From positions 1-19,557 of IMG/VR virus record IMGVR_UViG_2529293142_000017: a stretch of 19,557 bases of DNA; one strand, 5' to 3'. Below are positions 2,115-19,021 of the stretch, piece by piece (within the stretch, counting starts at the first letter, position 1; every line of letters starts with the position of its first letter). Position numbers and translations under genes: made by a program. The stretch comes from a virus. Its lineage: Duplodnaviria > Heunggongvirae > Uroviricota > Caudoviricetes. Below the pieces are notes generated by a model. That model saw only the letters and a list, made by a program, of their open reading frames with translations, searched no databases and was not told the origin of the DNA.

Positions 2115-2177
2115 TTTTCTGCTGCCGCAAAATCGGCAGCCGGGCGTGGAAACCCGAGCAATTCACAGGCGACATAT

Positions 2178-2925: not shown

Positions 2926-3331
2926 TTTTCCCCAGCCCGGTGAGATTTACCGTTCTGCCGGTTTTCCCGATGTGGCCGTGGTCGGCATTCTGGAAGACGG
3001 TATTCCGTGGGAAATGCCGTACCGCTGCCCGGACATTGTCTGGAACCCGTACCGCCGTAAATTCAGTATCCTTGTGCGTATCCTCGCTGACGGGCGCACC
3101 ACAGACATCCCGCTGGGGCGTTTTCTGCGGGAATTTACCTGTGACCGTCCTGACCTGTTTAAACGCAGCCCCGTAAACCGGCATGCGGTACTGAAAGAAA
3201 TGGCCGGAGACCCGGAATTACAGAAATGGCGGGAGAAATATCTGGATATTTACCCGCAGGCCCCCTGTTCCGGTCAGCCGGGCGGCACCGGTGGCGCGGG
3301 AATGGCGGGAAATTCCCCGCACGGAGCCTGA
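2918..3331 (+). CDS. Hypothetical protein (137 aa), P4-type left-operon gene
   Basis: GGGGAG RBS about 9 nt before ATG 2918. Start overlaps the previous stop. Codon usage matches the neighbouring GC-rich genes. Confidence 0.55.
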
Positions 3332-3510
3332 CCCGGAAATCACCCCGGATAACAGTTACCGCAATTATCTGTAAATTAAAAAACGACCCCCGAAAAATTA
3401 AATGTGCGTATTCGCGCAGGGATACGCACGTCTTCAGGAGACGCAGATATGCCTTATCAGTTAATGCAACCGGCACGGAATGCAGTCATCTGTCACAGGG
3501 AGGAAAACAA

Positions 3511-3831
3511 ATGAAAACACCCTTACCGCCCGTCTTACGCGCTGCCCTTTACCGTCGCGCTGTCGCCTGTGCCTGGCTGACCGTGTGCGAACGTCAGCAC
3601 CGCTACCCGCATCTCACCCTTGAGTCACTGGAGGCGGCCATCGCCGCTGAGCTGGAAGGCTTTTATCTGCGCCAGCACGGTGAGGAAAAAGGGCGTCAGA
3701 TAGCCTGTGCCCTGCTGGAAGATTTAATGGAATCCGGCCCCCTGAAGGCCGCGCCGTCGCTGTCCTTTCTCGGGCTGGTTGTGATGGATGAACTCTGTGC
3801 CCGTCACATAAAAGCGCCGGTACTGCACTGA
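3511..3831 (+). CDS. Hypothetical protein (106 aa) immediately upstream of alpha
   Basis: AGGGAGG RBS (3497-3503) 7 nt before ATG 3511. Stop lies 14 nt before the alpha start. It is the in-frame 3' part of the 3226-3831 ORF. Confidence 0.6.
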
Positions 3832-3845
3832 AGGAGAACAACACC

Positions 3846-6179
3846 ATGAAAATGAACGTAACCGCCACCGTCAGCCATGCACTCGGCCACTGGCCGCGTA
3901 TCCTCCCGGCGCTGGGGATTCAGGTGCTGAAGAACCGTCATCAGCCCTGTCCGGTCTGTGGCGGGAGTGACCGCTTCCGTTTGGATGACAGGGAGGGGCG
4001 CGGCACCTGGTACTGCAATCAGTGTGGTGCCGGTGACGGCCTGAAACTGGTTGAAAAGGTGTTTGGTGTTTCCCCGTCCGATGCGGCCGCAAAGGTGGCT
4101 GCCGTGACCGGCAGCCTGCCCCCGGCTGACCCGGCAGTGACGGCTGCCGCCGGTGCTGAAACAGACGCTGCCCGGAAGAACGCCGCCGCACTGGCACAAA
4201 CCCTGATGGCGAAAACCCGTCCCGGAACCGGTAACGCCTACCTGACCCGCAAGGGCTTTCCCGGCCGGGAATGCCGGATGCTGACCGGCACACACAGAGC
4301 CGGTGGCGTGAGCTGGCGTGCCGGTGACCTTGTGGTGCCACTGTATGACGACAGCGGCGAACTGGTTAACCTTCAGTTAATCAGTGCTGACGGCCGTAAG
4401 CGCACCCTGAAAGGCGGACAGGTCAGGGGCACCTGTCACACCCTTGAAGGACAGAATCAGGCCGGAAAACGTCTGTGGATAGCGGAGGGATACGCGACCG
4501 CACTTACCGTGCATCACCTGACCGGTGAAACGGTGGTGGTGGCGCTTTCTTCCGTGAATCTCCTTTCTCTGGCCAGCCTTGCCCGGCAGAAGCATCCGGC
4601 CTGTCAGATTGTCCTTGCTGCTGACCGTGACCTCAGCGGTGACGGCCAGAAAAAAGCCGCCGCAGCCGCAGATGCGTGTGAAGGTGTTGTTGCCCTGCCG
4701 CCGGTCTTCGGTGACTGGAATGATGCCTTCACGCAGTACGGCGGGGAAGCCACCCGTAAGGCCATTTATGATGCCATCCGGCCACCGGCTGAAAGCCCGT
4801 TCGACACCATGAGCGAAGCGGAGTTTTCCGCCATGAGTACCAGCGAAAAGGCCATGCGTATCTATGAGCATTACGGCGAGGCGCTCGCGGTCGATGCCAA
4901 CGGCCAGCTTCTGTCCCGCTATGAAAATGGTGTCTGGAAGGTGCTGCCGCCACAGGACTTTGCCCGGGATGTGGCCGGGCTGTTTCAGCGTCTGCGCGCG
5001 CCGTTCTCCTCCGGGAAGGTGGCCTCCGTGGTGGACACCCTGAAGCTGATTATTCCGCAGCAGGAAGCCCCCTCCCGCCGCCTGATTGGCTTTCGTAACG
5101 GCGTGCTCGACACGCAGAACGGCACGTTCCACCCGCACAGTCCGTCACACTGGATGCGCACCCTGTGTGATGTGGATTTCACCCCGCCAGTGGAAGGGGA
5201 AACGCTGGAAACCCACGCCCCCGCGTTCTGGCGCTGGCTTGACCGTGCCGCCGGTGGCCGTGCGGAAAAACGCGACGTGATTCTGGCCGCACTGTTTATG
5301 GTGCTGGCAAACCGCTACGACTGGCAGCTCTTTCTGGAGGTGACCGGTCCCGGCGGCAGCGGCAAAAGTATCATGGCCGAAATAGCCACCCTGCTGGCCG
5401 GGGAGGATAACGCCACATCGGCCACCATTGAGACGCTGGAATCCCCGCGTGAACGTGCCGCGTTAACTGGCTTCTCACTGATACGCCTGCCGGACCAGGA
5501 AAAATGGAGCGGCGACGGTGCCGGACTCAAGGCCATCACCGGCGGCGATGCGGTGTCCGTTGACCCGAAATACCGGGATGCGTACTCCACGCACATCCCG
5601 GCGGTGATTCTGGCCGTGAACAATAACCCGATGCGCTTCACCGACCGCAGCGGCGGCGTGTCACGCCGGCGGGTGATTATTCACTTCCCTGAACAGATAG
5701 CCCCGCAGGAGCGCGACCCGCAGCTTAAGGACAAAATCACCCGCGAGCTGGCGGTCATCGTGCGTCACCTGATGCAGAAATTCAGCGACCCGATGCTCGC
5801 CCGGTCACTGCTTCAGTCCCAGCAAAACTCAGACGAGGCGCTGAACATCAAACGGGATGCCGACCCGACGTTTGATTTTATCGGCTATCTGGAAACCCTG
5901 CCGCAGACCAGCGGCATGTATATGGGGAACGCCAGTATCATCCCGCGCAATTACCGTAAATACCTCTATCACGCCTATCTGGCCTACATGGAGGCAAACG
6001 GCTACCGGAATGTACTCAGTCTGAAAATGTTCGGGCTGGGGCTGCCGGTGATGCTGAAGGAATACGGACTGAATTACGAGAAGCGCCATACCAAACAGGG
6101 GATACAGACCAACCTGACGCTGAAAGAGGAAAGCTACGGCGACTGGCTGCCAAAATGTGACGACCCTGCAACAATCTGA
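3846..6179 (+). CDS. alpha: P4 alpha-type multifunctional replication protein (zinc-binding primase, TOPRIM, P-loop helicase, C-terminal origin-binding region)
   Basis: 777-aa ORF with AAGGAG RBS. N-terminal CPVCGG...CNQCG zinc motif, EGYATALTVH (TOPRIM-like) and Walker A VTGPGGSGKS. Same length as P4 alpha, and flanked downstream by iteron repeats. Confidence 0.95.
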   Translation: MKMNVTATVSHALGHWPRILPALGIQVLKNRHQPCPVCGGSDRFRLDDREGRGTWYCNQCGAGDGLKLVEKVFGVSPSDAAAKVAAVTGSLPPADPAVTAAAGAETDAARKNAAALAQTLMAKTRPGTGNAYLTRKGFPGRECRMLTGTHRAGGVSWRAGDLVVPLYDDSGELVNLQLISADGRKRTLKGGQVRGTCHTLEGQNQAGKRLWIAEGYATALTVHHLTGETVVVALSSVNLLSLASLARQKHPACQIVLAADRDLSGDGQKKAAAAADACEGVVALPPVFGDWNDAFTQYGGEATRKAIYDAIRPPAESPFDTMSEAEFSAMSTSEKAMRIYEHYGEALAVDANGQLLSRYENGVWKVLPPQDFARDVAGLFQRLRAPFSSGKVASVVDTLKLIIPQQEAPSRRLIGFRNGVLDTQNGTFHPHSPSHWMRTLCDVDFTPPVEGETLETHAPAFWRWLDRAAGGRAEKRDVILAALFMVLANRYDWQLFLEVTGPGGSGKSIMAEIATLLAGEDNATSATIETLESPRERAALTGFSLIRLPDQEKWSGDGAGLKAITGGDAVSVDPKYRDAYSTHIPAVILAVNNNPMRFTDRSGGVSRRRVIIHFPEQIAPQERDPQLKDKITRELAVIVRHLMQKFSDPMLARSLLQSQQNSDEALNIKRDADPTFDFIGYLETLPQTSGMYMGNASIIPRNYRKYLYHAYLAYMEANGYRNVLSLKMFGLGLPVMLKEYGLNYEKRHTKQGIQTNLTLKEESYGDWLPKCDDPATI

Positions 6180-6195
6180 CCCTCATGACTCATCT

Positions 6196-6219
6196 GACCG
6201 GCATCTGCCGGTCTTTTTT
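6196..6219 (+). terminator. Rho-independent terminator after alpha
   Basis: GACCGG-CATCTG-CCGGTC hairpin followed by T6, 17 nt after the alpha stop. Confidence 0.6.
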
Positions 6220-6238
6220 ATCCCTGAATTCCCCGAAG

Positions 6239-6536
6239 GTGAACAATCCACTGTTCACCCTTCACCGTGTATTCACCCGTTATCACACTGAAATTAAAAG
6301 AGAAAAACGAAAGGTGAACAGTGTGAACAATCAAATCAAAAAAAACTTTTTTTTCTCCCTGTGTGATTTCAGTACGGGGGATTAATCACCGGTATGAGTC
6401 ACACCGGCAGAATGCCGGAGGTGAAGAATCGAATGTTCACCCTTCACCCATTATTCACCACCTATCATACTGAAATAAAAGGAGAAAAAGAAAGGTGAAC
6501 AGTGTGAACAGTTCTTCCGAAAAAAATTTTTTCTTA
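6239..6536. repeat. Two ~120-bp direct repeats, each with several TGTTCACC/GGTGAACA iterons (crr-like cis replication region)
   Basis: Copy A is about 6239-6358 and copy B about 6420-6536, roughly 60 bp apart and about 85 percent identical by eye. Each holds GGTGAACA, TGTTCACC, TTCACC and TATTCACC variants plus GGTGAACAGTGTGAACA, and each ends in an A-run/T-run tract (A8-C-T8 and A7-T6). Confidence 0.7.
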
Positions 6537-6651
6537 CTTTTAATTGTGTAAAAAACAGGCGATGCGCGCAGTGTGTATAGATATGTGTATAGTTATATTT
6601 TTTGAATATAATAATATCTTATAAATCAATGCTTTAACTTGCAATATTCAT

Positions 6652-6669
6652 TCCTATTATCGGCACCAT
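6652..6669 (+). repeat. Attachment-site core copy (left): 18 bp identical to 19004-19021, with the form of a tRNA 3' end
   Basis: TCCTATTATCGGCACCAT reads as T-stem 3' half, acceptor 3' half, discriminator A and CCA. No D arm or anticodon arm lies upstream, so it is a partial tRNA copy. It sits about 115 bp after the crr-like repeats. Confidence 0.7.
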
Positions 6670-7274
6670 CAAGAAAATCAATAACTTAGCTTAACTTCTC
6701 TAAGAAATTGTATCTTCTGTTATCACTTACAAACGCCTATACGTTGTTATGGGCTTTGGTAGTGTAACACGTATGGGCGAGTAGTTCCCAAGCTCAACCT
6801 CGTAACAAGTTCCTTTGAAGCTGGAAGACGTGCCACCGTCTCTAAACCTTCTACCAAAACTCTTAGCAAGATGTTCCACACCTGGCGCGGTGTCCAATGA
6901 TGCTACACGTCGTGAGACGTTGCAGAGGATAAACAGGCTAAATGATGGGAAGAGTTTTAAGTGCAATAGTGGATTAAAGCCCACCTCTTCAAAACCTAAC
7001 TTGATCGGGAAAGAATCAAGCTCTAGCACGGTTTCGTCCACCGGAGTACAACGGGTGCCTGATAAGAGAAGAACTGCTAAGACTTCATAGCTTTTGTGAA
7101 AAAGCCCTTTTTAGTGGATACGCCTACGGCGCTTATTTTTTGGTATAACCATCAAAGGCGCTTTATGGCTTCTATTGTCTTGAAAATGTATCTTTACTTG
7201 TATTGTGTTTTATGCGTAGTCTCCCTGTGTAGTATGTAACTTGTTAATTTTCATATGAATACAGAGGCAACACG

Positions 7275-7433
7275 ATGAAAAACATTGCAGCTATAAAACG
7301 TAATAACCGCAAGATTCACGCTCGTAAGTTCCTGTCTACGCCAGAAGGAAAAGCCTGGTTAGAGCGTAAACAGAGAGAGAACGAAGAAAGAAAACTCCTT
7401 AGTGAGTTGAAATGGCTTAGAGAGGATTTCTGA
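7275..7433 (+). CDS. Possible small basic protein (52 aa), not in the supplied ORF track
   Basis: AGAGG 7 nt before ATG 7275. Encodes MKNIAAIKRNNRKIHARKFLSTPEGKAWLERKQRENEERKLLSELKWLREDF, a charged helical peptide. Too short for compositional support. Confidence 0.3.
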   Translation: MKNIAAIKRNNRKIHARKFLSTPEGKAWLERKQRENEERKLLSELKWLREDF

Positions 7434-7700
7434 AAATCTCCAGAACGCAACAGGACGCATTCTAACGCTGTTTTCATTGCTTGATATAGGGATGTATAGG
7501 TGGTGTGTGTTTAATGCGTCTGTGAGCTTGTTTTGTGCCTTATTTTGCATTTTCATAATGCAGAAGAGAACACGGAAAGCCTTAAAATTAATTATTTGGG
7601 TATTTAAGGCTATTTTCAGGTTATTTAAGGGTATTAAACTTGATTTAATTGGTTGAAATATAAACAGATAGTTCTGTATCTTATTGATTTATAAGGTTAT

Positions 7701-7780
7701 TTTTAAATAAAGGTAAATAAAAAATAAATAGCCATAAATAGCTATAAATACATCTAAATACCTATAAATCCCTTTGAATA
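7701..7780. repeat. Eight tandem 10-bp units ending in ATAAATA (helically phased A/T repeat)
   Basis: ttttaaataa, aggtaaataa, aaaataaata, gccataaata, gctataaata, catctaaata, cctataaatc, cctttgaata. The exact 10-bp period predicts intrinsically bent DNA. Confidence 0.6.
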
Positions 7781-7884
7781 CATATGAAGCCCTTCCCTTA
7801 TGGCTAGATTGCGAGAGGTGCTTAACGCGATTTTCAGCGCCCCCCGATCTGGAAAATCCAGAATCCCCAAATATCAAGGAGGCA

Positions 7885-8424
7885 TTACGCCTCCTCTTCT
7901 TCCTTCTTAATTCGCTGTACCGTCGAAGGAGCAACATTAAAGATCTCGGCGGTTTTACGCACTGACAGGCCATCAGAAAGGGCTTTCTTTATACCTTCTC
8001 TATCTACTGCTTTTCCATTACCACGCTTTGTAGGATTGACGGCTTGCGCTTCTCGTTTACGTTCTAACATCAGTTCACGTTCACACGTTGCCACTGCCGA
8101 CAACATAGTAAGCATCATTTTTCCCATCGCGCTTGTAATGTCAGCAATGATCCCTTCTTTGTGAAATCGAACAATTACACCACGATTATTAAGCTCTTCC
8201 ACTAAAGCAAGAATGTCTAAGGTGTTACGCCCTAAACGGTCGAGAGAGTGCACGTGTAAGGTGTCGCCTTCTCTCAGATAGGATAAACACGCCTGCAATC
8301 CTGGACGGTTAGTGTCTTTACCTGACAGCTTATCTTCAAAGACTTTATCAAGCGTTACTCCTGCAAGCTGGCGATCAGTGTTCTGATCTACAGTGCTCAC
8401 ACGCTTATAACCGATATTGCTCAT
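7885..8424 (-). CDS. Serine recombinase of the resolvase/DNA-invertase family (179 aa)
   Basis: N-terminal GYKRVSTVDQNTDRQ catalytic-serine motif, internal SLDRLGRN, and C-terminal HTH (TAEIFNVAPSTVQRIKK). AAGAGG RBS before ATG at 8424. Confidence 0.9.
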   Translation of the reverse strand: MSNIGYKRVSTVDQNTDRQLAGVTLDKVFEDKLSGKDTNRPGLQACLSYLREGDTLHVHSLDRLGRNTLDILALVEELNNRGVIVRFHKEGIIADITSAMGKMMLTMLSAVATCERELMLERKREAQAVNPTKRGNGKAVDREGIKKALSDGLSVRKTAEIFNVAPSTVQRIKKEEEEA

Positions 8425-8439
8425 AAAATCCTCTTAATG

Positions 8440-8560
8440 TATCGATTTGGCACTACTTCAATGCAAATGAGTATATCGTATTCATTTGGTCTGTTTCAAG
8501 CCTTATAGGTACGGAATATTACACGATTTAGCTGTATTCATTTGGTATGCCTAATGGATA
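8440..8560. promoter_or_regulatory. Candidate recombinase target or regulatory region with TTTGG-type repeats
   Basis: Direct repeats GTATTCATTTGGT at 8478 and 8535, and imperfect palindromes ATTTGGCA-N-TGCAAAT (8446-8470) and ATTTGGCA-N25-TGCCAAAT (8621-8661), immediately upstream of the recombinase start, where res or inversion sites usually lie. Confidence 0.25.
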
Positions 8561-8994
8561 CACAGGGGAATAGATTAAATGGTGTTCTGTTTATACAGGT
8601 TTATTTGTTAGATCAACAATTTGGCATTTCTAAACAGATGTTTGAACGTTGCCAAATGTCTTGACAACACAAGAAAAGGGCTTGCTATGCCACGCATTAC
8701 ACGAAATAAGGCTGTAAAAACAAAATAAATTTTAAAATTTGCACAAACGAGAAAACTCATTCGACAAATAATAGATTAATTTTTAGCCAACAATTTCTGA
8801 TGGTGCTCTGTAAGCCGCATTACACAAGGCTTTGCGAAAGTGATGTAAAAGTGAAGAAAGTTAACATTGCTCTTTTAAGCTACTTTTTCATTGAATTTTT
8901 AGTATGGAATTACACAGGAATAAGTTAGGGATATTCTATGATTTACACAGGGAATATAGGGGGATTATGGCACACACATAGAAAGGCATTACAC
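8518..8994 (+). repeat. Dispersed direct repeats of ATTACACAGG(A)ATA-type motif, at least 6 copies
   Basis: ATTACAC at 8518, 8696, 8819, 8909 and 8988, TTTACAC at 8942, plus ATACACAGGGGAATAG at 8558. Inverted copies (GTGTAATT) at 9476, 9530 and 9581. AATTACAC-N12-GTGTAATT forms a perfect inverted pair at 9510-9537. Confidence 0.5.
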
Positions 8995-9256
8995 AGAGTG
9001 AGTGCTATGTGACAAATGGATGTAACGAGAGGTTACATTCAGCTATCTGAAATGCTCTTTGTAAGAAAGTTGGTAGTAACGGTAGGTCATAGTGAGCTAG
9101 GGGGTAGGTCACTGTGAACTACAATAAGACTATTAATAAAACTATATTAGATTATTAATTAGATCATAATAATAATATTCTTTATATCTATATATATATG
9201 ATCTTTTGCCTTCCGGCGTTAGCTTCACTCTCTGGCAAGCAACCTTACTCCGCTAC

Positions 9257-9352
9257 CTTTCGGGCTTCGTGGCTGGCCCGTTCCGCTCACACCGAAAGCA
9301 AAGCGTTACTTTCTTCGTGTAACTATCGTTGGCGGTAACGCCCACGAAGAAA
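9257..9352. other. GC-richer island of interleaved inverted repeats inside AT-rich non-coding DNA
   Basis: CTTTCGG (9257) pairs with CCGAAAG (9292); GCGTTAC (9303) with GTAACGC (9335); TTTCTTCGTG (9310) with CACGAAGAAA (9343). The last two pairs cross each other, giving a pseudoknot-like or alternative-hairpin topology. Confidence 0.4.
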
Positions 9353-9631
9353 TACTATTGCGCTGTGCGCAGTAAGAGTAATCACCTAACCAATCATACT
9401 GATTGCTTACGTGTTAACTCTCTCTAACTCTTAATTACCCTCCTACATTTAATAACTCTGTTATTCTCTGTAGTTGTGTAATTACTCGAAGAGAGAGCGG
9501 CTAAAGCTCAATTACACTCTGCTTTCCTCGTGTAATTTCACTAAGCCTCAATACAATTTCACTTCCTACATTCTGTAGTCGTGTAATTGTTTTCGGTGGA
9601 AAAGCCAGAGGCGACACCGAAAGAGAATTCT

Positions 9632-9695
9632 GATCTTATTAATCTTATCTATCTTAGTTAATCTTCTTACTTATCTTACTTAATCTTTATCTACT
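9632..9695. repeat. Phased ATCTTA repeats (about 7 copies, 9-10 bp period) starting with a GATC 13-mer-like element
   Basis: GATCTTATTAATC at 9632-9644 resembles the oriC-type 13-mer class (GATCT + AT-rich), followed by aatcttatct, atcttagtta, atcttcttac, ttatcttact, taatctttat. Confidence 0.45.
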
Positions 9696-10223
9696 TTATT
9701 ATTAATAATAGCTTTATAAGCTCTCTGTAGCTCTCTGACGCAAGAAACAGCATTCAGGAAGGGAATCACCTTAGAAAAGTGTTCTTTGCGTCATAATGTG
9801 TTTTATGAAGGATTCAGAGGTGTTTCATAACAGGAATGTATAGAGGATACGTTAGGTAATTAAAAATAAGGGGTCTAAATGCTTCTCTAACAGCATTAAG
9901 CAGGGTAGGGAATGGAAACGCATTGCCTACATATATAATCTCACTACAGAGCTTTACAGAGCGTTTTATAAAGTGACTCTCTATCTTATATCTACCATCA
10001 CCTTTTTATATACCTAACAAATACCAAATAAGCCCCTTAAATAAGCCTCTGGCGAGCTAAACAGCCATTACATAAGGGAATGTATTGCTTTTATCAAAAC
10101 TTCGTTAGAACGCGTTTTAGAGCGTTTTAGACAATAATGAAGAATAGCACTACACAGAAGAGCACGAATTGCTAAGAAAAAATGTAAGTGCATGAAAAAG
10201 ATCAGATTTTTTGTGAAAAGGTA

Positions 10224-10252
10224 TTGACAAATGTTTCTTTATATGTAATAAT
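10224..10252 (+). promoter_or_regulatory. Candidate sigma70 promoter for the plus-strand small-gene operon
   Basis: TTGACA (10224-10229), 16-17 bp spacer, TAATAAT (10246-10252), about 110 bp upstream of the first gene. Confidence 0.5.
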
Positions 10253-10361
10253 AGGTATTAGAGGGACAGAAAAACATTCTTCTCTAAATAATCAAAATCA
10301 ATGCACTTTGAAGCCGTCAGGCTTGCAAGGTGTTTTTCTTTTAACTGAATAAGGAGTTTTT

Positions 10362-10550
10362 ATGAAATGGTTTACACCGAAACACGTCGTCGAGGCATTT
10401 AAAAAAGGTGAGCTAACACGCCACCAGGTAGTAATGAACCGTAATATGGCAAGGAGTCGAGGTTATCCAGAGCGAGCAGCTTGCTTCAATGAAGCACTCA
10501 AGATTATTGATGAACTAAGAAAAAATGAAAAAGAATCTGAAACAGAGTAA
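10362..10550 (+). CDS. Hypothetical small protein (62 aa)
   Basis: AAGGAG RBS 5 nt before ATG. First gene after the promoter. Basic and helical. Confidence 0.5.
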   Translation: MKWFTPKHVVEAFKKGELTRHQVVMNRNMARSRGYPERAACFNEALKIIDELRKNEKESETE

Positions 10551-10569
10551 AGAATAGAAGGAGAAAACT

Positions 10570-10740
10570 ATGAGCGAAACTACAGAAAAGAAAAGACAAC
10601 CACGCACTTGCTTTCATATTCCTGATGAAGTATTTCAGGTGTTGTTTAAAGAAGCCAGAAGTAGACGTATCACTGTTACAGATTACATTCTTGATATGTT
10701 GAAAAGAGAGGCTGAAACACTCTCAAATAAAAGCAAGTGA
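10570..10740 (+). CDS. Probable ribbon-helix-helix (Arc/MetJ/CopG-like) DNA-binding protein (56 aa), not in the ORF track
   Basis: AAGGAG RBS 7 nt before ATG 10570. RTCFHIPDEVFQVLFKEARSRRITVTDYILDMLKRE fits a beta-strand plus two helices. Confidence 0.5.
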   Translation: MSETTEKKRQPRTCFHIPDEVFQVLFKEARSRRITVTDYILDMLKREAETLSNKSK

Positions 10741-10793
10741 TTTTTATCACCATAGTAGCGCCGTAGAGCGTGATTACATCAAGGAGATTTTTA

Positions 10794-11483
10794 ATGATTA
10801 ACCAACTAACTTTTACAAAACACTATGACACGTTTGATAATGTATCAAAGATTTATTCTGATAAATTCCCTCAAGGAAAAGATTTAGATCTATTACATAT
10901 TGTGCTTTATTTTCGATTCCTTAGTTATCAGGAAAACAACCTTAATTGTTATGAAAGTCACGAAACATTAGCTAAGATTTTTAAGTCTTCAGCGTCAACA
11001 ATTAAACGTAAGATAAACGATCTTAAAGAGATGGGATTATTAGAAACATCCCCACATCCTGATCCGTATATTTCATCTTTGATTTACAATGCTCTCCCTC
11101 TCACAGATGCACATATTACTCCCCCAGGAGAATCATCACTCTCTGATCTTTCTGAGGCAGCAGAAGCACAGGAACAACCTAAAGGCCATAAACAGCCTTC
11201 TTTTGATGTTCTTGATGATTGGGATGCGCCTTTGCCGTGGGAGACGGAAGAAACACCTGTTTCATCAAGTGAAAAGGTAGCTAATGATAATGAGGAGGAT
11301 GTGTTAGAGAATTTTGCCTCTCTTATCTGCCAGCAGAAACACACCAGAACAGGAGGGGCATCATTTATAGAATTTGCAAATTCACTAGCTTATAGACACG
11401 GGCTAAAACGACCAAATGGTATTGAGGCATATTTTTCTAAGAATTACCCAAATGTGTATGATGACTTTGATATTCCATTTTAA
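10794..11483 (+). CDS. Winged-helix DNA-binding protein with acidic C-terminal region (229 aa); candidate replication initiator or regulator
   Basis: AAGGAG RBS 7 nt before ATG 10794 (the track's upstream GTG start would cover the RBS). HTH-like segment ESHETLAKIFKSSASTIKRKINDLKEMGLLE. Acidic Ser/Glu-rich C-terminal half. Confidence 0.7.
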   Translation: MINQLTFTKHYDTFDNVSKIYSDKFPQGKDLDLLHIVLYFRFLSYQENNLNCYESHETLAKIFKSSASTIKRKINDLKEMGLLETSPHPDPYISSLIYNALPLTDAHITPPGESSLSDLSEAAEAQEQPKGHKQPSFDVLDDWDAPLPWETEETPVSSSEKVANDNEEDVLENFASLICQQKHTRTGGASFIEFANSLAYRHGLKRPNGIEAYFSKNYPNVYDDFDIPF

Positions 11484-11494
11484 TAAGGAGGGTT

Positions 11495-11773
11495 ATGATT
11501 CAATATTTAGTAAAAAATCAAGTAGACAGAATTCAGTGTAATGACACAGGAAAACGCATCTACGAAACACTTGCTTACCTCTATAAAGGAAAGCCAACAC
11601 CGCTAAAATATAGCGATGTGTTACATCGAGCAGGGTGCTCTGAAGATGGTTTAAAATTCTGGCTGAAACAGCTATCAAATTTCGGTGTTATAGAGATTAA
11701 AGAATTATCTTTCTCTACATTCAATCTCAAAAGACTGGATAAAGAAATAGTATTCATCTATTCCACTCTCTAA
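11495..11773 (+). CDS. Hypothetical protein (92 aa), possible small HTH protein
   Basis: AGGAGGG RBS directly upstream, 11 nt after the previous stop. The YSDVLHRAGCSEDGLKFWLKQLSNFGVIEI segment looks HTH-like. Confidence 0.6.
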   Translation: MIQYLVKNQVDRIQCNDTGKRIYETLAYLYKGKPTPLKYSDVLHRAGCSEDGLKFWLKQLSNFGVIEIKELSFSTFNLKRLDKEIVFIYSTL

Positions 11774-11905
11774 AATCTCTCTATGTAATTAAAATATAAA
11801 AGGAAAACATTATTATGATAGTAGCTATGTATTGGTTATTGTTCTTTCTCACGTTAGAAACATATTTCGGGGTGTTTTCCTTTAAAAGAAAAGGAAAAGT
11901 AAATA

Positions 11906-12313
11906 ATGGCAAAAAGAAAAAACAACGTTGTTAAGAAAATCGGTGATTCAGCTTCTCTTCTAAGTAAACCTAAATCTATTCTAAGACGTAAAGACTTTAA
12001 AGAGCTAGTTACGCTCTCCAAGCAAAATAGCGCCCCTGGCGAATGGAAAACAGAGATCATAGAACATTCTCCCTCTGTGCCTTGTGGAGATGAATTTAAC
12101 GCCTTACAAGAAATCTTATCTTCAACACCTGGCGTATTCTGGAAACCTAGAAAAAGAAAAGAGTATATTGTTGATAGCTCTGATTTACGCAAATACCAGA
12201 TTTTAGGATTTGAAGACTATAACCACTACGTTGGTTATCTCGCCACCAATGGCCTAAATAATTTAGTTCCTGAATTCCATTTAGATAATGATGATCACTA
12301 TGGAGACTTTTAA
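11906..12313 (+). CDS. Hypothetical protein (135 aa)
   Basis: AAAGGAAAAG RBS region before ATG. Basic N-terminus (MAKRKNNVVKK). Same strand and codon style as neighbours. Confidence 0.6.
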   Translation: MAKRKNNVVKKIGDSASLLSKPKSILRRKDFKELVTLSKQNSAPGEWKTEIIEHSPSVPCGDEFNALQEILSSTPGVFWKPRKRKEYIVDSSDLRKYQILGFEDYNHYVGYLATNGLNNLVPEFHLDNDDHYGDF

Positions 12314-12314
12314 T

Positions 12315-12653
12315 ATGAACAAAAACACGTATGATACAATTTACTCACTAATTAATTATTATGAGGATGATTACCTCCTGCCTTTAAACCGCGCTGAACT
12401 TGAAGCATATAAAGAAAATACACCATCGGCACTAAATGAGGCGTTTAAACACTGGGATCTAGCTGTGAATGCCTTGGAGCACCTCTTTAAGCGTGTAGAG
12501 ATGCTCTGTAAGCGCGAAAACGCATATCTGACAGCGGATCAGATATGGGAGCTATCAAACTGGATAGAAGATATTGAATCTGATGTTCGCTATGTGGGAG
12601 ATGGCCTTATCGAACTCGCACAACGCTTAGGCGCTGCTATCACAGAAGAATAA
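12315..12653 (+). CDS. Hypothetical protein (112 aa)
   Basis: GGAG 9 nt before ATG 12315, which lies 1 nt after the previous stop. The track's earlier start (12288) overlaps the upstream gene and has no RBS. Confidence 0.6.
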   Translation: MNKNTYDTIYSLINYYEDDYLLPLNRAELEAYKENTPSALNEAFKHWDLAVNALEHLFKRVEMLCKRENAYLTADQIWELSNWIEDIESDVRYVGDGLIELAQRLGAAITEE

Positions 12654-12682
12654 AAAAAGCAACAAAAAAGTTGTAAAATATC

Positions 12683-12711
12683 TTGACATTTCATATATTG
12701 TATGTTAATAT
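12683..12711 (+). promoter_or_regulatory. Near-consensus sigma70 promoter (TTGACA-N17-TAATAT)
   Basis: Hexamers at 12683-12688 and 12706-12711 in the intergenic gap after the 112-aa gene. Confidence 0.55.
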
Positions 12712-12909
12712 AATTATATGGGGTGATTATTTTTCCTTTATTGGTTCGATATTAAAAATTCTTCTTGTCGTTAAAGGGGAGTAAAATCTCCGCTCCCCGC
12801 TTCTCCTCCTTAAGTAAATACTGTGTCATTATTACCTCTTTTTTCCTTTGTTATGCATACATCTTGGAGTATGCATAACATAGGGTAATTACATAGGTAC
12901 AAGTTAATA

Positions 12910-12941
12910 AAAGGCGGCTCTAAATGCTGCCTTTTATTTTG
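12910..12941 (+). terminator. Intrinsic-terminator-like hairpin ending a ~200-nt ORF-free leader
   Basis: AAAGGCGGC-TCTAAAT-GCTGCCTTT (9-bp stem with one G-T) followed by TATTTTG. Lies between the strong promoter and the next gene start at 13003. Confidence 0.5.
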
Positions 12942-13002
12942 CCCGTTATGCAACTTAAAAGTTGTATTTCTTACTTTAAACAAGGTAACAAGGTTTATAT
13001 AA

Positions 13003-13215
13003 ATGTTGTTTTTAAACGATAAAGAGCAAATCATCAAGTATAAAGATGAAATGCTGAAAATTAATCCACAAATTACCGAAATGGTAGCTAAATACGCTGG
13101 GTGTTCTGTCGAGGAAGTAGAAAGATGTGTTGAAAAATATTTTTCTCCTTCTTCTCCGTCTACACCTTCCCTTAATGAATTAATCAAATTAAAAGCTAAG
13201 GAGATTACTAAATGA
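13003..13215 (+). CDS. Hypothetical small protein (70 aa)
   Basis: Weak RBS (AAGG about 12 nt upstream). Stop overlaps the next start (ATGA). Confidence 0.45.
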   Translation: MLFLNDKEQIIKYKDEMLKINPQITEMVAKYAGCSVEEVERCVEKYFSPSSPSTPSLNELIKLKAKEITK

Positions 13216-13574
13216 TTATTGATTTAGACACTCTATTTCCAGTTCGAAAGACTTTCACAGATATTGTAAGTTATTGTACTGATCCGTTTGCCTCTGTAGA
13301 AAGCAAGGTTTTTGCTTCTCTTCCTGCTGATGTTGAATGCGGAGACTTGATCACCAGCACTGGCGCTAAATATGAATCAGGAGATGATATCTATGTTGTT
13401 ATGAGTGAATTTTTAACGGCTGGAGAAAATAAGCCTGTAGATGTTTTACGTAGCAATGCTGGCCTTGTCTGCATCAAATCTGATGCGCTGAATGCTGTAA
13501 GTGAAGCAGCAAAAACAGCATTAATTAAAAAAGGCTTCCAGCTTGAAGGGTTCCATTCTGTTTTCACTTCTTAA
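13212..13574 (+). CDS. Hypothetical protein (120 aa)
   Basis: AAGGAG RBS 8 nt before ATG, overlapping the previous stop. Acidic protein. Confidence 0.6.
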   Translation: MIIDLDTLFPVRKTFTDIVSYCTDPFASVESKVFASLPADVECGDLITSTGAKYESGDDIYVVMSEFLTAGENKPVDVLRSNAGLVCIKSDALNAVSEAAKTALIKKGFQLEGFHSVFTS

Positions 13575-13592
13575 TAAAAGGAATAATAATAA

Positions 13593-14621
13593 ATGATTTT
13601 AGGTAATGATTACGTTGATTTAGCTCCTCTGTTCTCTGCGCATAGCACTAGAAACTATCTGCTTTCTACTCTTGATTTTACGGATTCTGTAGGGGTTACA
13701 TCTCATAAAGTAGCTGTTTCCCAGCTTGTCGAAAGCAACGAATCTCTGTTCAACAAAGAAACCTCTCGTTTCTCTTCTGAACACAACGTTACTAAGCGTG
13801 AACAAGGCAAAGAATATCTTATCGAAATCCCGTACTTTTTAAGGCAAGACCTGATCAAACCGCAGGACGTGCAAGGCAAGCGTAAGCCTGGCACTGATTT
13901 TCAGGAAACACTCACTGATATCTATGCTGACTATGTTGCTAAACACCACGTAGCGTATCAGCGCACTAAAGAAAGCGTATTGGCTGCTTCTTTGTTTAGT
14001 GGTCGCACCTATACCCCGAAAACTGACGATGTTCTTATCGAGTGGGGCAAGCTGTTTAACGTATCAGCTATGAAAGCCACTGTGAACGCTTCCAGCACTG
14101 ACACCACGAAGATTTTTAAAGAATTTGATCAGATTGCTACGAATATTATCGACAGAGCACAAAGCCAGGCGGCTGCTGTAGAAAGAATTGTTGTTTTCTG
14201 TAAACCTGACGCCTTCTCTGCAATTCGATTCTCTGCTGGTATGGCAAACGCATTCCAGTATGTAAGCCCACTGGAAGAGGGGAATGTTGTGTATCAGCGT
14301 CGTGACCTGCTGCCAGGGGTGACAGCGTTCACTATCCCAGGAACTAACATTGATGTTGTTAAACTGGTAGATCCGCTACACCTTGCACATATGACCGCAG
14401 ACGCTGTAGCTGTTCCGAAGTTTGCTAAAGGCTCTAATGTATATCAGAACATCTACGGGGCTGCTTCCAGCACCTTTGAACTGATTAATGCCGCTCCTGC
14501 TGAGGTGTACAGCTATAGCTATGAATCTTCTCGTGGTGATGCTGTTAACGTTGTTACAGAGAATAGCCAGATGGTGGTAAACCACGGCGTTGGCTTCTCT
14601 GTTCAAATCACTGTTAAATAA
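13593..14621 (+). CDS. Hypothetical protein (342 aa) with virion-structural-like composition; candidate major structural protein
   Basis: RBS-like AAAGGAA before ATG. Rich in Ala/Ser/Thr/Val/Asn with no Cys-rich or nucleotide-binding motifs. Followed by a strong terminator, as is common after highly expressed structural genes. No family recognised from sequence. Confidence 0.8.
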   Translation: MILGNDYVDLAPLFSAHSTRNYLLSTLDFTDSVGVTSHKVAVSQLVESNESLFNKETSRFSSEHNVTKREQGKEYLIEIPYFLRQDLIKPQDVQGKRKPGTDFQETLTDIYADYVAKHHVAYQRTKESVLAASLFSGRTYTPKTDDVLIEWGKLFNVSAMKATVNASSTDTTKIFKEFDQIATNIIDRAQSQAAAVERIVVFCKPDAFSAIRFSAGMANAFQYVSPLEEGNVVYQRRDLLPGVTAFTIPGTNIDVVKLVDPLHLAHMTADAVAVPKFAKGSNVYQNIYGAASSTFELINAAPAEVYSYSYESSRGDAVNVVTENSQMVVNHGVGFSVQITVK

Positions 14622-14640
14622 CATTTTAACGTGTAATAGA

Positions 14641-14673
14641 GGCGTGGCGTGTATTCACGCTTCGCCTTTTTTT
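14641..14673 (+). terminator. Rho-independent terminator
   Basis: Nested GC stem (GGCG...GCGTG-TATT-CACGC...CGCC) followed by T7, 20 nt after the 342-aa gene stop. Confidence 0.65.
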
Positions 14674-14707
14674 ATTTATTTTTTAAATTTTGAGAGGTGA
14701 TTAAAAT

Positions 14708-14911
14708 ATGGAAGTGATTCTGAAATCAAAAAATGGTGTACACGTACATTTAGATGCTAATGATTCTAGAGGATTGTTAAATCTGAAATATCTATGTTCT
14801 CTCCTAGATGTTCCATATGAAGGAGTAAAAGCCCGTATGTTCAGACTAAACGAGAGTATTGATCAAGCTCTACACCATTTCTTAAGTAAAGAAGGTGGTA
14901 AAAATGATTAA
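14708..14911 (+). CDS. Hypothetical small protein (67 aa)
   Basis: GAGAGGTGA RBS 7 nt before ATG. First gene after the terminator. Confidence 0.5.
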   Translation: MEVILKSKNGVHVHLDANDSRGLLNLKYLCSLLDVPYEGVKARMFRLNESIDQALHHFLSKEGGKND

Positions 14912-14925
14912 TAAGGGGATTTTAA

Positions 14926-16755
14926 ATGTTAGAAATTAACACTTCTAAAATTAAGAACACAGTTACATTTAGTGTAGATAAAGACAGCTTGAAAAAAGCG
15001 AAAGACTCTATTACAGGCTTAAAGGAATTCGCAGAAAATATCAAGCCAGCTAAATTAAGGTTTGATAATGTCACTAAAGGCTATAAGAAAGCACAAAACG
15101 AAGTAGACAAGATTGCTCAACAGAAAGCCAAAACAGAAAAACAGAATCAAAGAGCACAAGCTGCCGCAGCAAGAGCACAGGCAAGGCAACAGGCACAAAT
15201 AGCAGCACGCAAGGAGAAAGCAGAATTAAAGCTCCTTGATGTGTCAAGCTCTATCAGTGCAATGCACCGTCTCTCTGTAGCTGAACAATACAAAGCTATT
15301 GCACAGGCTAGAGAGATAGCAAAACAATATGAGCAAGGGGCTATCTCGCTTGCACGTATGAATAGCCAGATGAAACGCCTACAACAGCAACAACGTAAGA
15401 TTAATGGCAACCGAAAAGCACAATTAGCCCCCGTTAAGGGAGGATCAGGGAATTCCGCCACTATGGGCGCTCTGTTATTTGGAGGCGCTACGGCTGCTGC
15501 TGGCGTGATGGCTGTTAGTAAAGCCTCTGAATTTATGGCTAATAGCTTCGCTAACGCAGAGACACAAGGAGAGCTAATTCAACGTGCAAGGCTTGGCGGT
15601 GTAGACGTTAACCAGATGTATAATATTACAGAATGGGCGTATAAAAACGGCGTTGACTCTATGATGGGTGATCAAGGGGCTAGAAAATACCTGGATCAGA
15701 TGAAAGATGTTAGGGAACGTGCCGCAAAATCCTACAGTGAAGCTGAATTGGTGAAAGATAAGAAAACCGGAAAATCTGAATGGAAAGGCGGTGATAACGC
15801 TATTAATGAACTTCTAAACATCGGTGTTATTAACAAAAGCGACCTTAAAAAATTTGCTGATAATCCAGCCGGATTAATTTCTAAGGCTGTTAATGGAATG
15901 ATGAAAAAAGGGTTTTCAGACTCCCAAATTGGACAACGTTTAGAAGACCTGGGCGATGATTTGATGCTTACGTCAAAATATTGGCAACGTTCCGTTAAAG
16001 ATGTACAAGAAAGTATTAATCAGCAAAAAGCCTCTGGAAAATGGCTAACAGAAACACAGCAAGAATCTATCGTTAAATTCAGAGAACTAAACAGACAGCT
16101 TTCACAGCTTTCTGATGCAAGACAAGTAGCATTTGTAGACGGCTTTATGAAATCTCTCGATCCAAAAGTAACGGAAGAGTTTTTGAAAAACCTTTCTAAT
16201 CTCACTCCGTATTTTACGAAGCTGGGAGAAGCTACAGGAAGTCTCTTTGAAGCTATTATGAAGATTGTAAACTGGTTTAATCGTAATGATGATAAGACAG
16301 ATGCTATTCAGAAAAATTTAGGTGATGCACCGCCTTTGAGTAATGAAGGGATGAAACAGCATCTTTCTAATCTCGTTCCTGACCAATATAAAGGCGCTGG
16401 CACTGCAACAACTACACCTGATAATAGTCATTCTCTCTTTAACACGATTAAGGGATTGCTTTTCGATGATAATTCTTCTGTGTCAGATGTAAAAATGTCA
16501 GTCAATGAAGCACCGATAACCAATCTCAAACAGGGTGCTTTAAATAATCTTGCAATGACAACTCCGGCTTATAATTTATCTCCTGTGTTTAATCTGAATC
16601 CGACCTTTGAAGTGGTAACAGAGGTTCCTCTTACTATTAATTCTGACACATCAAGATTAAGCGATTATGTGGATTTTACAGCGAGAGCAAGTCGGGATAG
16701 CTTCTTGAAATCATTAACATTAACCAGCTTATCAGGACAATCCAACGGCGGGTAA
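14926..16755 (+). CDS. Hypothetical protein (609 aa) resembling a tape-measure or pilot protein: basic Gln/Ala-rich coiled coil plus a Gly/Ala hydrophobic segment
   Basis: AAGGGG RBS 9 nt before ATG. Residues ~60-170 are Lys/Gln/Ala-rich helix (QKAKTEKQNQRAQAAAARAQARQQAQIAARKEKAE), followed by GALLFGGATAAAGVMAV. No signal peptide and no enzymatic motif recognised. Confidence 0.8.
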   Translation: MLEINTSKIKNTVTFSVDKDSLKKAKDSITGLKEFAENIKPAKLRFDNVTKGYKKAQNEVDKIAQQKAKTEKQNQRAQAAAARAQARQQAQIAARKEKAELKLLDVSSSISAMHRLSVAEQYKAIAQAREIAKQYEQGAISLARMNSQMKRLQQQQRKINGNRKAQLAPVKGGSGNSATMGALLFGGATAAAGVMAVSKASEFMANSFANAETQGELIQRARLGGVDVNQMYNITEWAYKNGVDSMMGDQGARKYLDQMKDVRERAAKSYSEAELVKDKKTGKSEWKGGDNAINELLNIGVINKSDLKKFADNPAGLISKAVNGMMKKGFSDSQIGQRLEDLGDDLMLTSKYWQRSVKDVQESINQQKASGKWLTETQQESIVKFRELNRQLSQLSDARQVAFVDGFMKSLDPKVTEEFLKNLSNLTPYFTKLGEATGSLFEAIMKIVNWFNRNDDKTDAIQKNLGDAPPLSNEGMKQHLSNLVPDQYKGAGTATTTPDNSHSLFNTIKGLLFDDNSSVSDVKMSVNEAPITNLKQGALNNLAMTTPAYNLSPVFNLNPTFEVVTEVPLTINSDTSRLSDYVDFTARASRDSFLKSLTLTSLSGQSNGG

Positions 16756-16786
16756 TTCCCGCCATAACATTACAAGGAAAATTATT

Positions 16787-17500
16787 ATGGCAACGGCGGG
16801 AATTTTAACCATACGATCAGCAAATACTCCAGAACAACACGTTCAGGCTGTTTACAAAGCAGAACAAGATATAAACTCTACAAAAAACGAAAATAGCAAA
16901 GCTAATAAAACAAAAGGAGAGAACGGATTTGCTATTGTTACCAGTGGACTGGCATCTTCTGGCAATGACGTTTATGAAAATTATATGGCACTGGCCTTTG
17001 ACAGTGTTGACGACGTGAACGTGAGACGTTCGGCAGATGTTACAAGCTACCCCGTAGAAAATGGTGCTACTGTGTCTGATCACGTTCAAATTAAAAACAA
17101 TAAATTTTCTCTTAAAGGAAGGATCACTGAAACACCGATTAAAAGCGATCCTGGCTTGTTAAAGAGTGCAGGGGTGAACGGGAACAGAAGATCATTAGCT
17201 ATCGACTACCTGAATCAGATTATGGACAGTAGACAGCCTTTTCTTCTTGTTACAGAAAATAAAACTTTTGAGAACGTTGTTTTAACAGGCATCGAATACA
17301 CAGAAGAGGCAAGCGAATCCCTGGTATTTGATCTTAGCTTTGAGCAGATCAGGCTCGTTTCGTATGGCACTGTAAACACTGTAGCTCTCAAAACACAGCC
17401 ATCTAAGAACATTGGGGCTAATATGAAAAAACGTGTTAACACTGAAAAATCAAGTAGTGAAGGTGAAGACACTATTACTCCTGCCTTTAAACAGGAATAG
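16787..17500 (+). CDS. Hypothetical protein (237 aa), structural-like, co-transcribed with the 609-aa gene
   Basis: AAGGA RBS about 9 nt before ATG, 31 nt after the previous stop. Beta-rich composition (VTSYPVENGATVSDHVQIKNNKFSLKGRITETPI). Confidence 0.8.
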   Translation: MATAGILTIRSANTPEQHVQAVYKAEQDINSTKNENSKANKTKGENGFAIVTSGLASSGNDVYENYMALAFDSVDDVNVRRSADVTSYPVENGATVSDHVQIKNNKFSLKGRITETPIKSDPGLLKSAGVNGNRRSLAIDYLNQIMDSRQPFLLVTENKTFENVVLTGIEYTEEASESLVFDLSFEQIRLVSYGTVNTVALKTQPSKNIGANMKKRVNTEKSSSEGEDTITPAFKQE

Positions 17501-17542
17501 CTGTAAATGCCTCTAAAACGCTCTGTAACGATGTAATTATAA

Positions 17543-17573
17543 AAGAGGCTACCAATCTATGTTGAAGCCTCTT
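17543..17573. terminator. Hairpin between convergent genes (possible bidirectional terminator)
   Basis: AAGAGGC-N17-GCCTCTT with flanking A/T, between the 237-aa gene stop (17500) and the integrase stop (17582). Confidence 0.45.
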
Positions 17574-17581
17574 TATTGCGT

Positions 17582-18946: not shown

Positions 18947-19003
18947 TCAATTAGTAATGGTCGTAGGTGATGGCATTAACACGAGATTAATCGAGTGTTT
19001 TAC

Positions 19004-19021
19004 TCCTATTATCGGCACCAT
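19004..19021 (+). repeat. Attachment-site core copy (right): 18 bp identical to 6652-6669
   Basis: TCCTATTATCGGCACCAT, then AAAATCAA shared with the left copy after a 1-3 nt difference. A 10-mer GGTCGTAGGT resembling a tRNA T-arm lies 35 bp upstream (18959-18968). Confidence 0.7.

Follow-up and report, generated by a model that had tools for sequence, protein, structure and literature searches.

A probable replication and control module of an Escherichia coli phage satellite and a putative origin-directed nuclease of related phages

We analysed a stretch of 19,557 nucleotides (positions 1 to 19,557 of the IMG/VR virus record IMGVR_UViG_2529293142_000017; hereafter the window) and, within it, four small genes that follow a candidate promoter at 10224-10252. 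The genes lie in an AT-rich element of ~12.3 kb to the right of the GC-rich part of the window, and this element is, by its gene content, an integrated satellite at thrW, with genes for tail and capsid that are similar to those found in phi92/phAPEC8-like myophages (Stephanstirmvirinae). We consider it probable that the four genes behind the promoter serve the satellite as its module for replication and control, with an initiator of 229 amino acids (aa), exchange of cassettes between satellites and a counter-nuclease on the side of the phages. The 229-aa protein is best read as the origin-binding replication initiator, with the iterons at 9081-9121 as its predicted target, because the upstream DNA has the anatomy of an origin, the DNA-binding domain and the iterons are paired across related loci, and profile searches match the protein to initiator families.

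The comparison drew on 84 further loci, which were gathered around homologues of the 62-aa gene of the module and in which the module genes were called. Across these loci the third gene, encoding the 229-aa protein in the window, is a mosaic that joins one of five unrelated-looking N-terminal winged-helix types to one of a few C-terminal types. In the 2.4 kb of upstream DNA, 11-mers specific to a domain type fall in a single location, from -1360 to -1000 relative to the first gene. This location is a repeat array directly left of an AT-rich stretch, and its repeat differs with the domain type: CCTAGGAAATGAGTTCC accompanies type 0, CCCACAGAATTCTGTTA type 1, GGTAGGTCAYWGTGARCTA type 2 (the type of the window, with copies at 9081-9121), ACCCCTATCAAnnnTGATA type 3 and GGTAGTAACGATAtGTTACAT type 4. 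Of 61 non-identical loci, 56 had a dominant iteron type that agreed with the domain type, two were discordant and three were ties; none of 100,000 permutations reached 56, the permutation maximum being 27. Taken separately, both backbones show the pairing (20/23 and 28/30). One or two relic repeats of other types persist in many loci, and type-4 arrays of ~5 copies stand in loci whose initiator has the type-4 domain. Judging from this covariation, domain and iterons are exchanged together as a cassette among satellites.

The window carries two cognate iterons on the plus strand, GGTAGGTCATAGTGAGCTA at 9081-9099 and GGTAGGTCACTGTGAACTA at 9103-9121, each of 19 nt and semi-palindromic (AGGTCAC/GTGAACT), and to their left a single type 4-like relic, GGATGTAACGAGAGGTTACAT, at 9018-9038 on the same strand. 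Directly to the right follows a stretch of 79 bp with 87% A+T (9122-9200), a candidate DNA-unwinding element of the origin; such a stretch is kept beside the iterons in all backbone-0/2 loci shown. Next comes a GC-richer (52%), hairpin-rich block at 9201-9360, for which folding as single-stranded DNA gave -32.9 kcal/mol (z = -3.8; 0/200 shuffles as stable) and whose left end, an 18-nt anchor, is conserved over the loci of the window's backbone. Iterons, an 87% AT stretch and a strongly folding block together have the anatomy of an iteron origin, ~1.1-1.2 kb upstream of the promoter and operon of the module. A 46-aa open reading frame (ORF) at 9198-9338 overlaps the GC-richer block and is called by no annotation.

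The 229-aa protein itself consists of a type-2 winged-helix domain (aa 1 to ~100), the motif ALPLTDAHITPP (aa 100-111), an acidic, proline-rich linker, a C-terminal region of type 0 and the tip VYDDFDIPF. In the family the junction motif reads ALP(L/F)TDAH(I/V)xPP and is likewise followed by the acidic proline-rich linker. A preliminary description of the window, made from its letters, had proposed a winged-helix protein with an acidic tail and called for profile searches. These gave PHROG 270, 'replication initiation protein', as the best match (2.6e-9), followed by weaker PHROG matches to O-like initiators (1.8e-4 to 3e-4) and a DnaD-like helicase loader; together with a match to the Pfam family HTH_36 they bear out the winged helix. 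There is no match to RepA_N (PF06970) at E values up to 1; the protein is not a member of that family and would function like RepA of PLE, the satellite of the cholera phage ICP1, from outside it. A first homologue search returned near-identical E. coli sequences only, and a representative search of 1.84 billion proteins yielded no more than 39 clusters, which marks the family as a narrow one. Comparison with phage and plasmid collections by tblastn gave weak N-terminal matches only, and PDB sequence and profile searches with the 229-aa protein and the 56-aa and 62-aa proteins of the module gave nothing significant.

The extreme C-terminus is a second common feature of the family. The window initiator ends in ...VYDDFDIPF and other members end in ...EEDDFDIPF, ...IYDSIPF, ...YDDFEIPF, ...YEEFELPF or ...GEFEDLPF. 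An acidic run with an (I/L)-P-F tip is present in nearly every member, with all C-terminal types and in most of the distant full-length representatives; it is conserved although the preceding C-terminal regions differ, and the linker before it is acidic and disordered. None of the ORFs of phage muut, to which the element is compared below, ends with such a tip. Bacterial SSB, the protein that binds single-stranded DNA, has, in E. coli too, the conserved tip DDDIPF, described in two papers (PMC5872125, PMC10018359) as docking many replication and repair proteins. The AT-rich element has no recognisable helicase, primase or polymerase gene, so its initiator must recruit replication enzymes, and we propose from the likeness of the short motifs and from the conservation of the tip that the initiator tip may bring SSB-interacting host proteins to the origin.

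The preliminary description had named another repeat, ATTACAC, as the target of the module proteins. The repeat is genuine, with 12 copies in the window against 2.3 expected, 9 of them within 8518-9587. The left cluster, ATTACAC(R) at 8518-8994, holds five exact copies and a TTTACAC variant, all in plus orientation, and of the four copies in the right cluster (9476-9587) three run opposite to those of the left cluster. As the target of the initiator, ATTACAC was rejected: its copy number tracks the backbone and the type of the 92-aa gene, not the domain type. The 2 kb upstream contain 5-10 copies in one backbone and 0-3 in the other, where ATTGCAC and ATTACAT replace ATTACAC, and the ATTACAC count, the 62-aa type and the type of the ribbon-helix-helix (RHH) protein are each independent of the initiator domain type; the count likewise shows no dependence on the RHH type or the 62-aa type. 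It is GGTAGGTCAYWGTGARCTA at 9081-9121 that covaries instead.

The 229-aa protein could also be a transcription factor, with 9081-9121 as its operator or enhancer and the module as a regulatory switch for induction. NCBI names the protein 'transcriptional regulator' or 'helix-turn-helix domain-containing protein', it matches CasR/Csa3 and Crp-like regulators (E 1e-4 to 1e-2), and covariation of domain and site fits any specific DNA binder. Against this, the best profile matches are replication initiators, and the repeats lie 1.1 kb from the module promoter, beside the 87% AT stretch and at no gene start. Moreover, the element needs a replicon, and no other candidate initiator was found in the library scans. 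Finally, a phage nuclease that copies the domain, described below, makes most sense if directed against an essential cis site, as with Odn of ICP1. We therefore regard the transcription-factor explanation as improbable, though it is the strongest of the alternatives. Of the 'repressor or antirepressor plus initiator set' next to repeat-rich DNA that had been suggested for the module, the initiator part stands, while the repressor or antirepressor reading of the 229-aa protein is not supported.

Homologues of the 229-aa initiator occur in three deposited phages: muut_154 (332 aa), inny_184 (367 aa) and QNJ49226 of Mt1B1_P17 (328 aa). In all three, a tandem pair of HTH_36 domains precedes a C-terminal domain. 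The latter matches Pfam MUG113 (2.9e-5; 25.0 bits, above the cut-off of 22.3), which we take to be a family of the GIY-YIG clan, and PHROG 681, 'endonuclease' (2e-18); related domains of other phages carry annotations as homing or GIY-YIG endonucleases. Phage counterparts, at 75-100% identity, exist for all five satellite domain types. Type 1 is 99% identical to domain 1 of Mt1B1_P17, type 3 88% to domain 1 of muut, type 4 87% to domain 1 of inny, the satellite junction motif ALPLTDAHITPP included, and type 0 75-82% to domain 2 of all three phages. Type 2, the type of the window, has no counterpart among deposited phages and was found on a 97-kb muut-like viral contig of IMG/VR (L097). The first 105 aa of the contig protein are 100% identical to the window protein, and the gene lies at the same position as in muut, its flank being 99.1% identical to muut over 3 kb. 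Muut and inny, in turn, encode an RHH protein that is 100% identical to the type B RHH protein of the satellites. These comparisons point one way, namely that phages would have captured pieces of the satellite replication module and joined these to a nuclease domain. The simplest reading of the phage protein is a putative origin-directed nuclease that cuts satellite origins, by analogy with ICP1 Odn, which joins a RepA-like N-terminal domain to T5orf172, cuts the origin iterons of PLE (Barth et al., 2021, PMC8263062) and is considered the driver of PLE replicon-module swaps (PMC8263062).

The traffic might have run in the reverse direction, the phage protein being a phage initiator or early regulator and the satellites copying its domains to bind phage DNA and hinder their helper, or else to be activated by it. 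Indeed, the phage gene lies in an early-looking operon beside a divergent promoter region, and PHROG profiles call the phage N-terminal domains replication initiation. PLE, moreover, domesticated a DNA binder derived from an ICP1 nuclease, CapR. However, the muut genome, scanned in full, has no arrays of any of the five iteron types, including the type-0 and type-3 arrays that its two domains should recognise and that the satellites do have. The gene is also missing from most related phages although its flanks are kept: the flanking locus is found in 86 phage records, of which only 3 cover at least 80% of a query including genes 153-154, and phi92 is without the 153-154 insert. In addition, the phage C-terminal domain is nuclease-like, and the junction and linker specific to the satellites (ALPLTDAHITPP...), present in every satellite allele, recur in inny_184 and in the L097 protein. 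Borrowing by the satellites thus seems to us quite unlikely.

Several points weigh against the 229-aa protein as initiator and the phage protein as its counter-nuclease. The evidence for both is wholly comparative and computational. In the covariation analysis, removal was limited to exact duplicates, and the metagenome loci lack phylogenetic independence. The two discordant loci (L030 and L082, both from metagenomes) may be recent recombinants, non-functional copies or assembly chimeras, and the covariation as such would equally fit a transcription factor and its operator. The window has two iterons, whereas relatives with the same domain have 4-6. As to the protein, its HTH_36 match (2.8e-5, 24.3 bits) is just under the cut-off of 25, its C-terminal region has no recognised fold or family, and its resemblance to the SSB tip spans 4-6 residues. 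As to the phages, the match of the C-terminal domain to T5orf172, a family of the GIY-YIG clan (PMC8263062), is at 0.005 and 17.7 bits, under the cut-off of 20. The 97-kb contig ends in the gene, within domain 2, so that a nuclease domain would lie beyond the contig end, and the complete iteron scan of phage genomes covered muut alone.

The module is preceded by a sigma-70 promoter on the plus strand (10224-10252; TTGACA, 17-nt spacer, (TG)tAATAAT), which has 11 of 12 consensus positions plus an extended -10 and is the top site of 8400-13100. Promoter-like sites in this region are not enriched as a class (11 seen against 17.3 expected), so the case for the promoter rests on this single site. 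Most positions of its -35 are invariant in an alignment of 71 distinct leaders of related loci. About 100 bp upstream of the -35, at 10103-10132, are direct repeats, CGTTAGAACGCGTTTTAGAGCGTTTTAGAC, that are conserved in the family, one relative being without one unit; the RHH protein or the 62-aa protein may use them as an operator. The leader contains a stem-loop (10303-10333; folding z = -2.6) followed by a U-run, UUUUUCUUUU, together forming a terminator-like or attenuator-like structure on the plus strand (10303-10343). This suggests attenuation of the operon; the stem-loop is nearly invariant over the 71 leaders and so uninformative for covariation.

All four genes of the module are on the plus strand: the 62-aa gene at 10362-10550, the 56-aa gene at 10570-10740, the 229-aa gene at 10794-11483 from its ATG (the mechanical ORF, 10770-11483, begins at a GTG) and the 92-aa gene at 11495-11773. 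A strong AGGAG-type Shine-Dalgarno sequence lies 6-9 nt 5' of each, and all four, the 56-aa gene included, are annotated coding sequences in an identical RefSeq copy. Variation within types is biased towards the third codon position, with counts at positions 1/2/3 of 2/1/7 in the 56-aa gene, 5/8/28 in the 92-aa gene and 9/3/31 in the first 100 codons of the 229-aa gene. The four small genes after a candidate promoter that the preliminary description had outlined are upheld by these data and by the near-consensus promoter, and so is the gene at 10570-10740, which the ORF track had missed.

Between the 56-aa gene and the initiator gene lies a junction of 49 nt on the plus strand, TAGTAGCGCCGTAGAGCGTGATTACATCAAGGAGATTTTTAATGATTAA (10753-10801), comprising the 5' untranslated region, the Shine-Dalgarno sequence and the first codons of the initiator gene. 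It varies very little among satellites and phages, its identity to phages Mt1B1_P17 and BI-EHEC being 94-98%. Megablast matches of other, diverged elements stop at 10801, which marks this position as the left breakpoint of domain swaps. The junction occurs once in the window and once in the muut genome; a phage promoter consensus was therefore rejected, and the sequence is better read as a recombination junction combined with a translation-initiation region.

The AlphaFold2 model of the 56-aa protein (pLDDT 89) has an extended segment (residues 1-18) and two helices (19-31 and 36-54). Its Foldseek matches in the PDB, as listed, are nearly all RHH proteins, with a top probability of 0.98; the individual E-values are weak, owing to the small size of the protein. 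Sequence profiles are weak throughout (PHROG 582 'Arc-like repressor', 0.017; PDB matches, E 0.1-0.5). On its predicted structure the protein is an RHH protein of the Arc/MetJ/CopG superfamily, as had been proposed from the letters, and we call it type A. The second gene of the module, next to the initiator gene on its upstream side, always encodes a small RHH-type protein, of which there are three sequence types. In one type the gene overlaps the initiator gene, and the third allele type at this position has a classical RHH pattern. The window protein is 46% identical to muut_153. DNA words specific to RHH types A or B were not found near the promoter, and the few type-C words fall in the type-0 iteron region, so we propose no RHH operator from such words. 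By analogy with CopG, which regulates RepB, the 56-aa protein most likely autoregulates the initiator operon.

Since many RHH proteins are antitoxins, and the structural matches include VapB12, AtaR and KacA, we also considered that the RHH protein and a toxin encoded by a neighbouring gene form a toxin-antitoxin or abortive-infection pair that stabilises the island, a pairing that the preliminary description had left open. Neither neighbour, the 62-aa nor the 229-aa protein, matches a toxin family in Pfam, NCBIfam, PHROGs or PADLOC, and assignment of the module to toxin-antitoxin or defence systems was rejected for want of matches. The immediate downstream partner of the RHH gene is invariably the initiator gene. 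Further, muut and inny co-captured the RHH gene with the domain, although an antitoxin would bring the phages no gain, and Mt1B1_P17 has the nuclease gene and no RHH gene. Such a pair is thus very unlikely.

The 92-aa protein has an H1-strand-H2-H3-wing topology and structural matches to DNA-binding winged-helix domains. Its gene exists in three homologous types, of which the window has type A, and the type covaries with the form of the ATTRCAY repeats on both sides of the origin. From this it may be weakly inferred that the 92-aa protein binds the ATTRCAY repeats around the origin; the covariation is equally explained by linkage, because both belong to the same backbone. The 62-aa protein is basic with an acidic tail and is the product of the first module gene in all related elements; its homologues seem confined to Escherichia-type loci. 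It has no family or structure match in Pfam, NCBIfam, PHROGs, PADLOC or PDB sequence and profile searches. The original view of the four products as small DNA-binding proteins hence holds for the 56-aa, 229-aa and 92-aa proteins and is unsupported for the 62-aa protein.

The GC-rich left part of the window (1 to ~6200) holds a P4-like primase gene and crr-type repeats of P4: a 777-aa alpha-type primase gene lies at 3846-6179, and the repeats (~6200-6530) are ~95% identical to P4. A P4-like satellite (1-6550) thus stands directly left of the AT-rich satellite, and the two, which are unrelated, appear to lie in tandem at thrW. No tRNA gene was found within the window. In E. coli 20KM2762, where the module region is 100% identical, the AT-rich element comes directly after tRNA-Thr, between proA and a LysR remnant plus paoD. 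From left to right, the element consists of a 52-aa ORF, a gene for a serine recombinase on the minus strand (7885-8424), a gene-free stretch of ~1.9 kb, the four module genes, five small genes and a lambda-E-type major capsid gene (13593-14621; Pfam 5.6e-14), then genes for proteins of 67, 609 and 237 aa, the last a 'baseplate' gene, and finally, on the minus strand, a tyrosine integrase gene (17582-18946). Matches to the 1.8-kb module region occur in 663 of 5,426 complete E. coli genomes (~12%), with at least 80% coverage in 206.

Short patches of the element are 91-98% identical to Stephanstirmvirinae phages of 145-151 kb. Local tblastn of the element proteins against the whole muut genome gave 60% identity between the 237-aa protein and muut_230, 31-53% between the 609-aa protein and muut_231, 23% between the capsid proteins of satellite and phage, and 27% between muut_154 and the winged-helix portion of the 229-aa protein. 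The 609-aa protein is tape-measure-like and the 237-aa protein is of the tail-tube-initiator/baseplate type. The satellite's own capsid, tape-measure-like and tail-tube-initiator/baseplate proteins (13593-17500) suggest that it remodels both the head and the tail of its helper. No terminase or portal gene is recognisable in the element. Relatives that share the gene order and differ in their integrases occupy thrW, a tRNA-Gly and the thiM riboswitch. An 8-kb relative in E. coli UPEC-245U (L011), inserted at the thiM thiamine pyrophosphate (TPP) riboswitch, which is duplicated at both of its ends, has an integrase, the recombinase, the non-coding origin region and the module, and is without capsid and tail genes. 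The module and the non-coding DNA upstream thus emerge as the conserved core. That the element is a decayed prophage and the module a functionless leftover of a phage early region is scarcely credible, for although it is without a recognisable terminase, portal and most tail genes and has genes in common with lytic phages, its compact gene arrangement is repeated at three integration sites, with different integrases, and in hundreds of genomes, the third-position-biased variation indicates purifying selection, and modules are actively shuffled with strict domain-iteron matching.

Some further features lie in non-coding DNA. A 40-nt patch at 7808-7847, TTGCGAGAGGTGCTTAACGCGATTTTCAGCGCCCC..., is 95-97.5% identical to muut 64301-64340 and is also present in two further loci (L007 and L009). 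On the muut side it belongs to a 1.8-kb gene-free, repeat-rich region; several other Stephanstirmvirinae genomes match the patch as well. The patch is a candidate for a packaging or regulatory signal common to satellite and phage, packaging being considered because the satellite has no recognisable terminase gene. A second patch at 9857-9878, AATTAAAAATAAGGGGTCTAAA, is identical at 21 of 22 positions to muut 65592-65613, in the same phage non-coding region, and is found in the UPEC-245U relative too. This region of muut (64000-65800; L005) is gene-free and contains four TGAAATGATTAC-type repeats at 65111-65172, a repeated AGGTTAGAT and several Fur-box-like GATAATGATTATCATT motifs. Within the element, a second strong promoter-like site (TTGACA-17-TAATAT with TG) is located at 12683-12711, in the gap before a 70-aa gene and the capsid operon. 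An Rfam search over 6200-13100 gave nothing near threshold.

The closest known parallel is PLE and ICP1. The PLE RepA and origin resemble those proposed here in that an N-terminal domain acts on semi-palindromic iterons in a non-coding origin and domain and origin form one exchangeable module. Odn, in turn, is like the phage genes in being an accessory chimeric gene of a lytic helper that joins a copy of the satellite domain to a T5orf172-type nuclease (GIY-YIG clan), kin of homing endonucleases. The systems differ in the DNA-binding family (HTH_36-type winged helix here, RepA_N in PLE), in the number of domain and iteron types (five against two described for PLE), in the identity between phage and satellite domains (75-100% against 42% for ICP1 and PLE) and in host and phage (E. 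coli and Stephanstirmvirinae against V. cholerae and ICP1). Unlike Odn, the phage proteins have two different tandem domains, and muut and inny also captured the RHH gene. Odn cuts iterons, whereas the putative nucleases described here are known from sequence.

Lambda O with ori-lambda and the plasmid initiators RepA and pi likewise combine a winged helix, direct repeats of ~19-20 bp and an adjacent AT-rich region, but the origin here lies 1.1 kb upstream of the operon and not in or beside the initiator gene. The P-binding C-terminal part of lambda O has no similarity here, and the satellite protein has one winged-helix domain, where plasmid Rep proteins have two, and an SSB-like tip. CopG-RepB of pMV158 shares a small RHH gene just upstream of the initiator gene and co-transcribed with it, and CopG is among the structural matches. 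However, RepB is a rolling-circle nuclease and not an iteron binder, the sequence similarity is not significant, and none of the word searches gave an operator here. With the C-terminus of SSB the initiator tip shares the acidic run, the terminal Ile/Leu-Pro-Phe and a disordered linker that is both acidic and proline-rich; the likeness is one of motif, and here the tip sits on a sequence-specific double-stranded-DNA binder, not an OB fold. P4 alpha with ori/crr and Pri-Rep of phage-inducible chromosomal islands (PICI) provide, as here, origin recognition encoded by a satellite beside an origin rich in repeats, but P4 alpha and PICI Rep have primase and/or helicase domains of their own and the initiator described here has none.

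Taken together, we envisage the following mechanism. The winged-helix domain of the 229-aa initiator would recognise the iterons at 9081-9121, as their covariation implies; the duplex would open at the adjoining 87% AT stretch; and the ...DDFDIPF-COOH tip could dock SSB-interacting replication proteins at the origin. The RHH protein would autoregulate the operon and the 92-aa protein would probably act on the ATTRCAY repeats. An accessory early gene of some helper-type phages (muut_154, inny_184 and QNJ49226) would cut satellite origins, and this counter-weapon would be the selective pressure for cassette exchange. A more specific version is tentative, and we would not favour it as it stands: an undescribed family of E. 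coli satellites of phi92/phAPEC8-like phages, whose initiator uses an SSB-tip mimic to tether PriA, DnaG or chi to a double-stranded origin and which is caught in a multi-allelic arms race with nucleases that each read two origin types, satellites escaping by swaps of domain-iteron cassettes that leave relic iterons behind.

A satellite replicon facing an origin-directed phage nuclease is a known kind of system, so far described only as the arms race between the cholera phage ICP1 and the PLE satellite. The present variant, distinguished by its E. coli host, Stephanstirmvirinae helpers, HTH_36 domains, five allele types, two-domain nucleases and SSB-like tip, was not found in the literature searched; that search returned no described satellite of these phages and no initiator with an SSB-like tip, which does not prove their absence. 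If our reading is true, this would be a second, independent arms race between origin-directed nucleases and satellite replicons, in E. coli and in a group of phages used in therapy and biocontrol, and its five matched allele types permit direct specificity-swap experiments. The SSB-tip mimic on an initiator may be a new route of replisome recruitment. The module would account for genes listed as 'hypothetical' or 'transcriptional regulator' in ~12% of complete E. coli genomes, and it predicts whether a strain resists or supports particular Stephanstirmvirinae phages.

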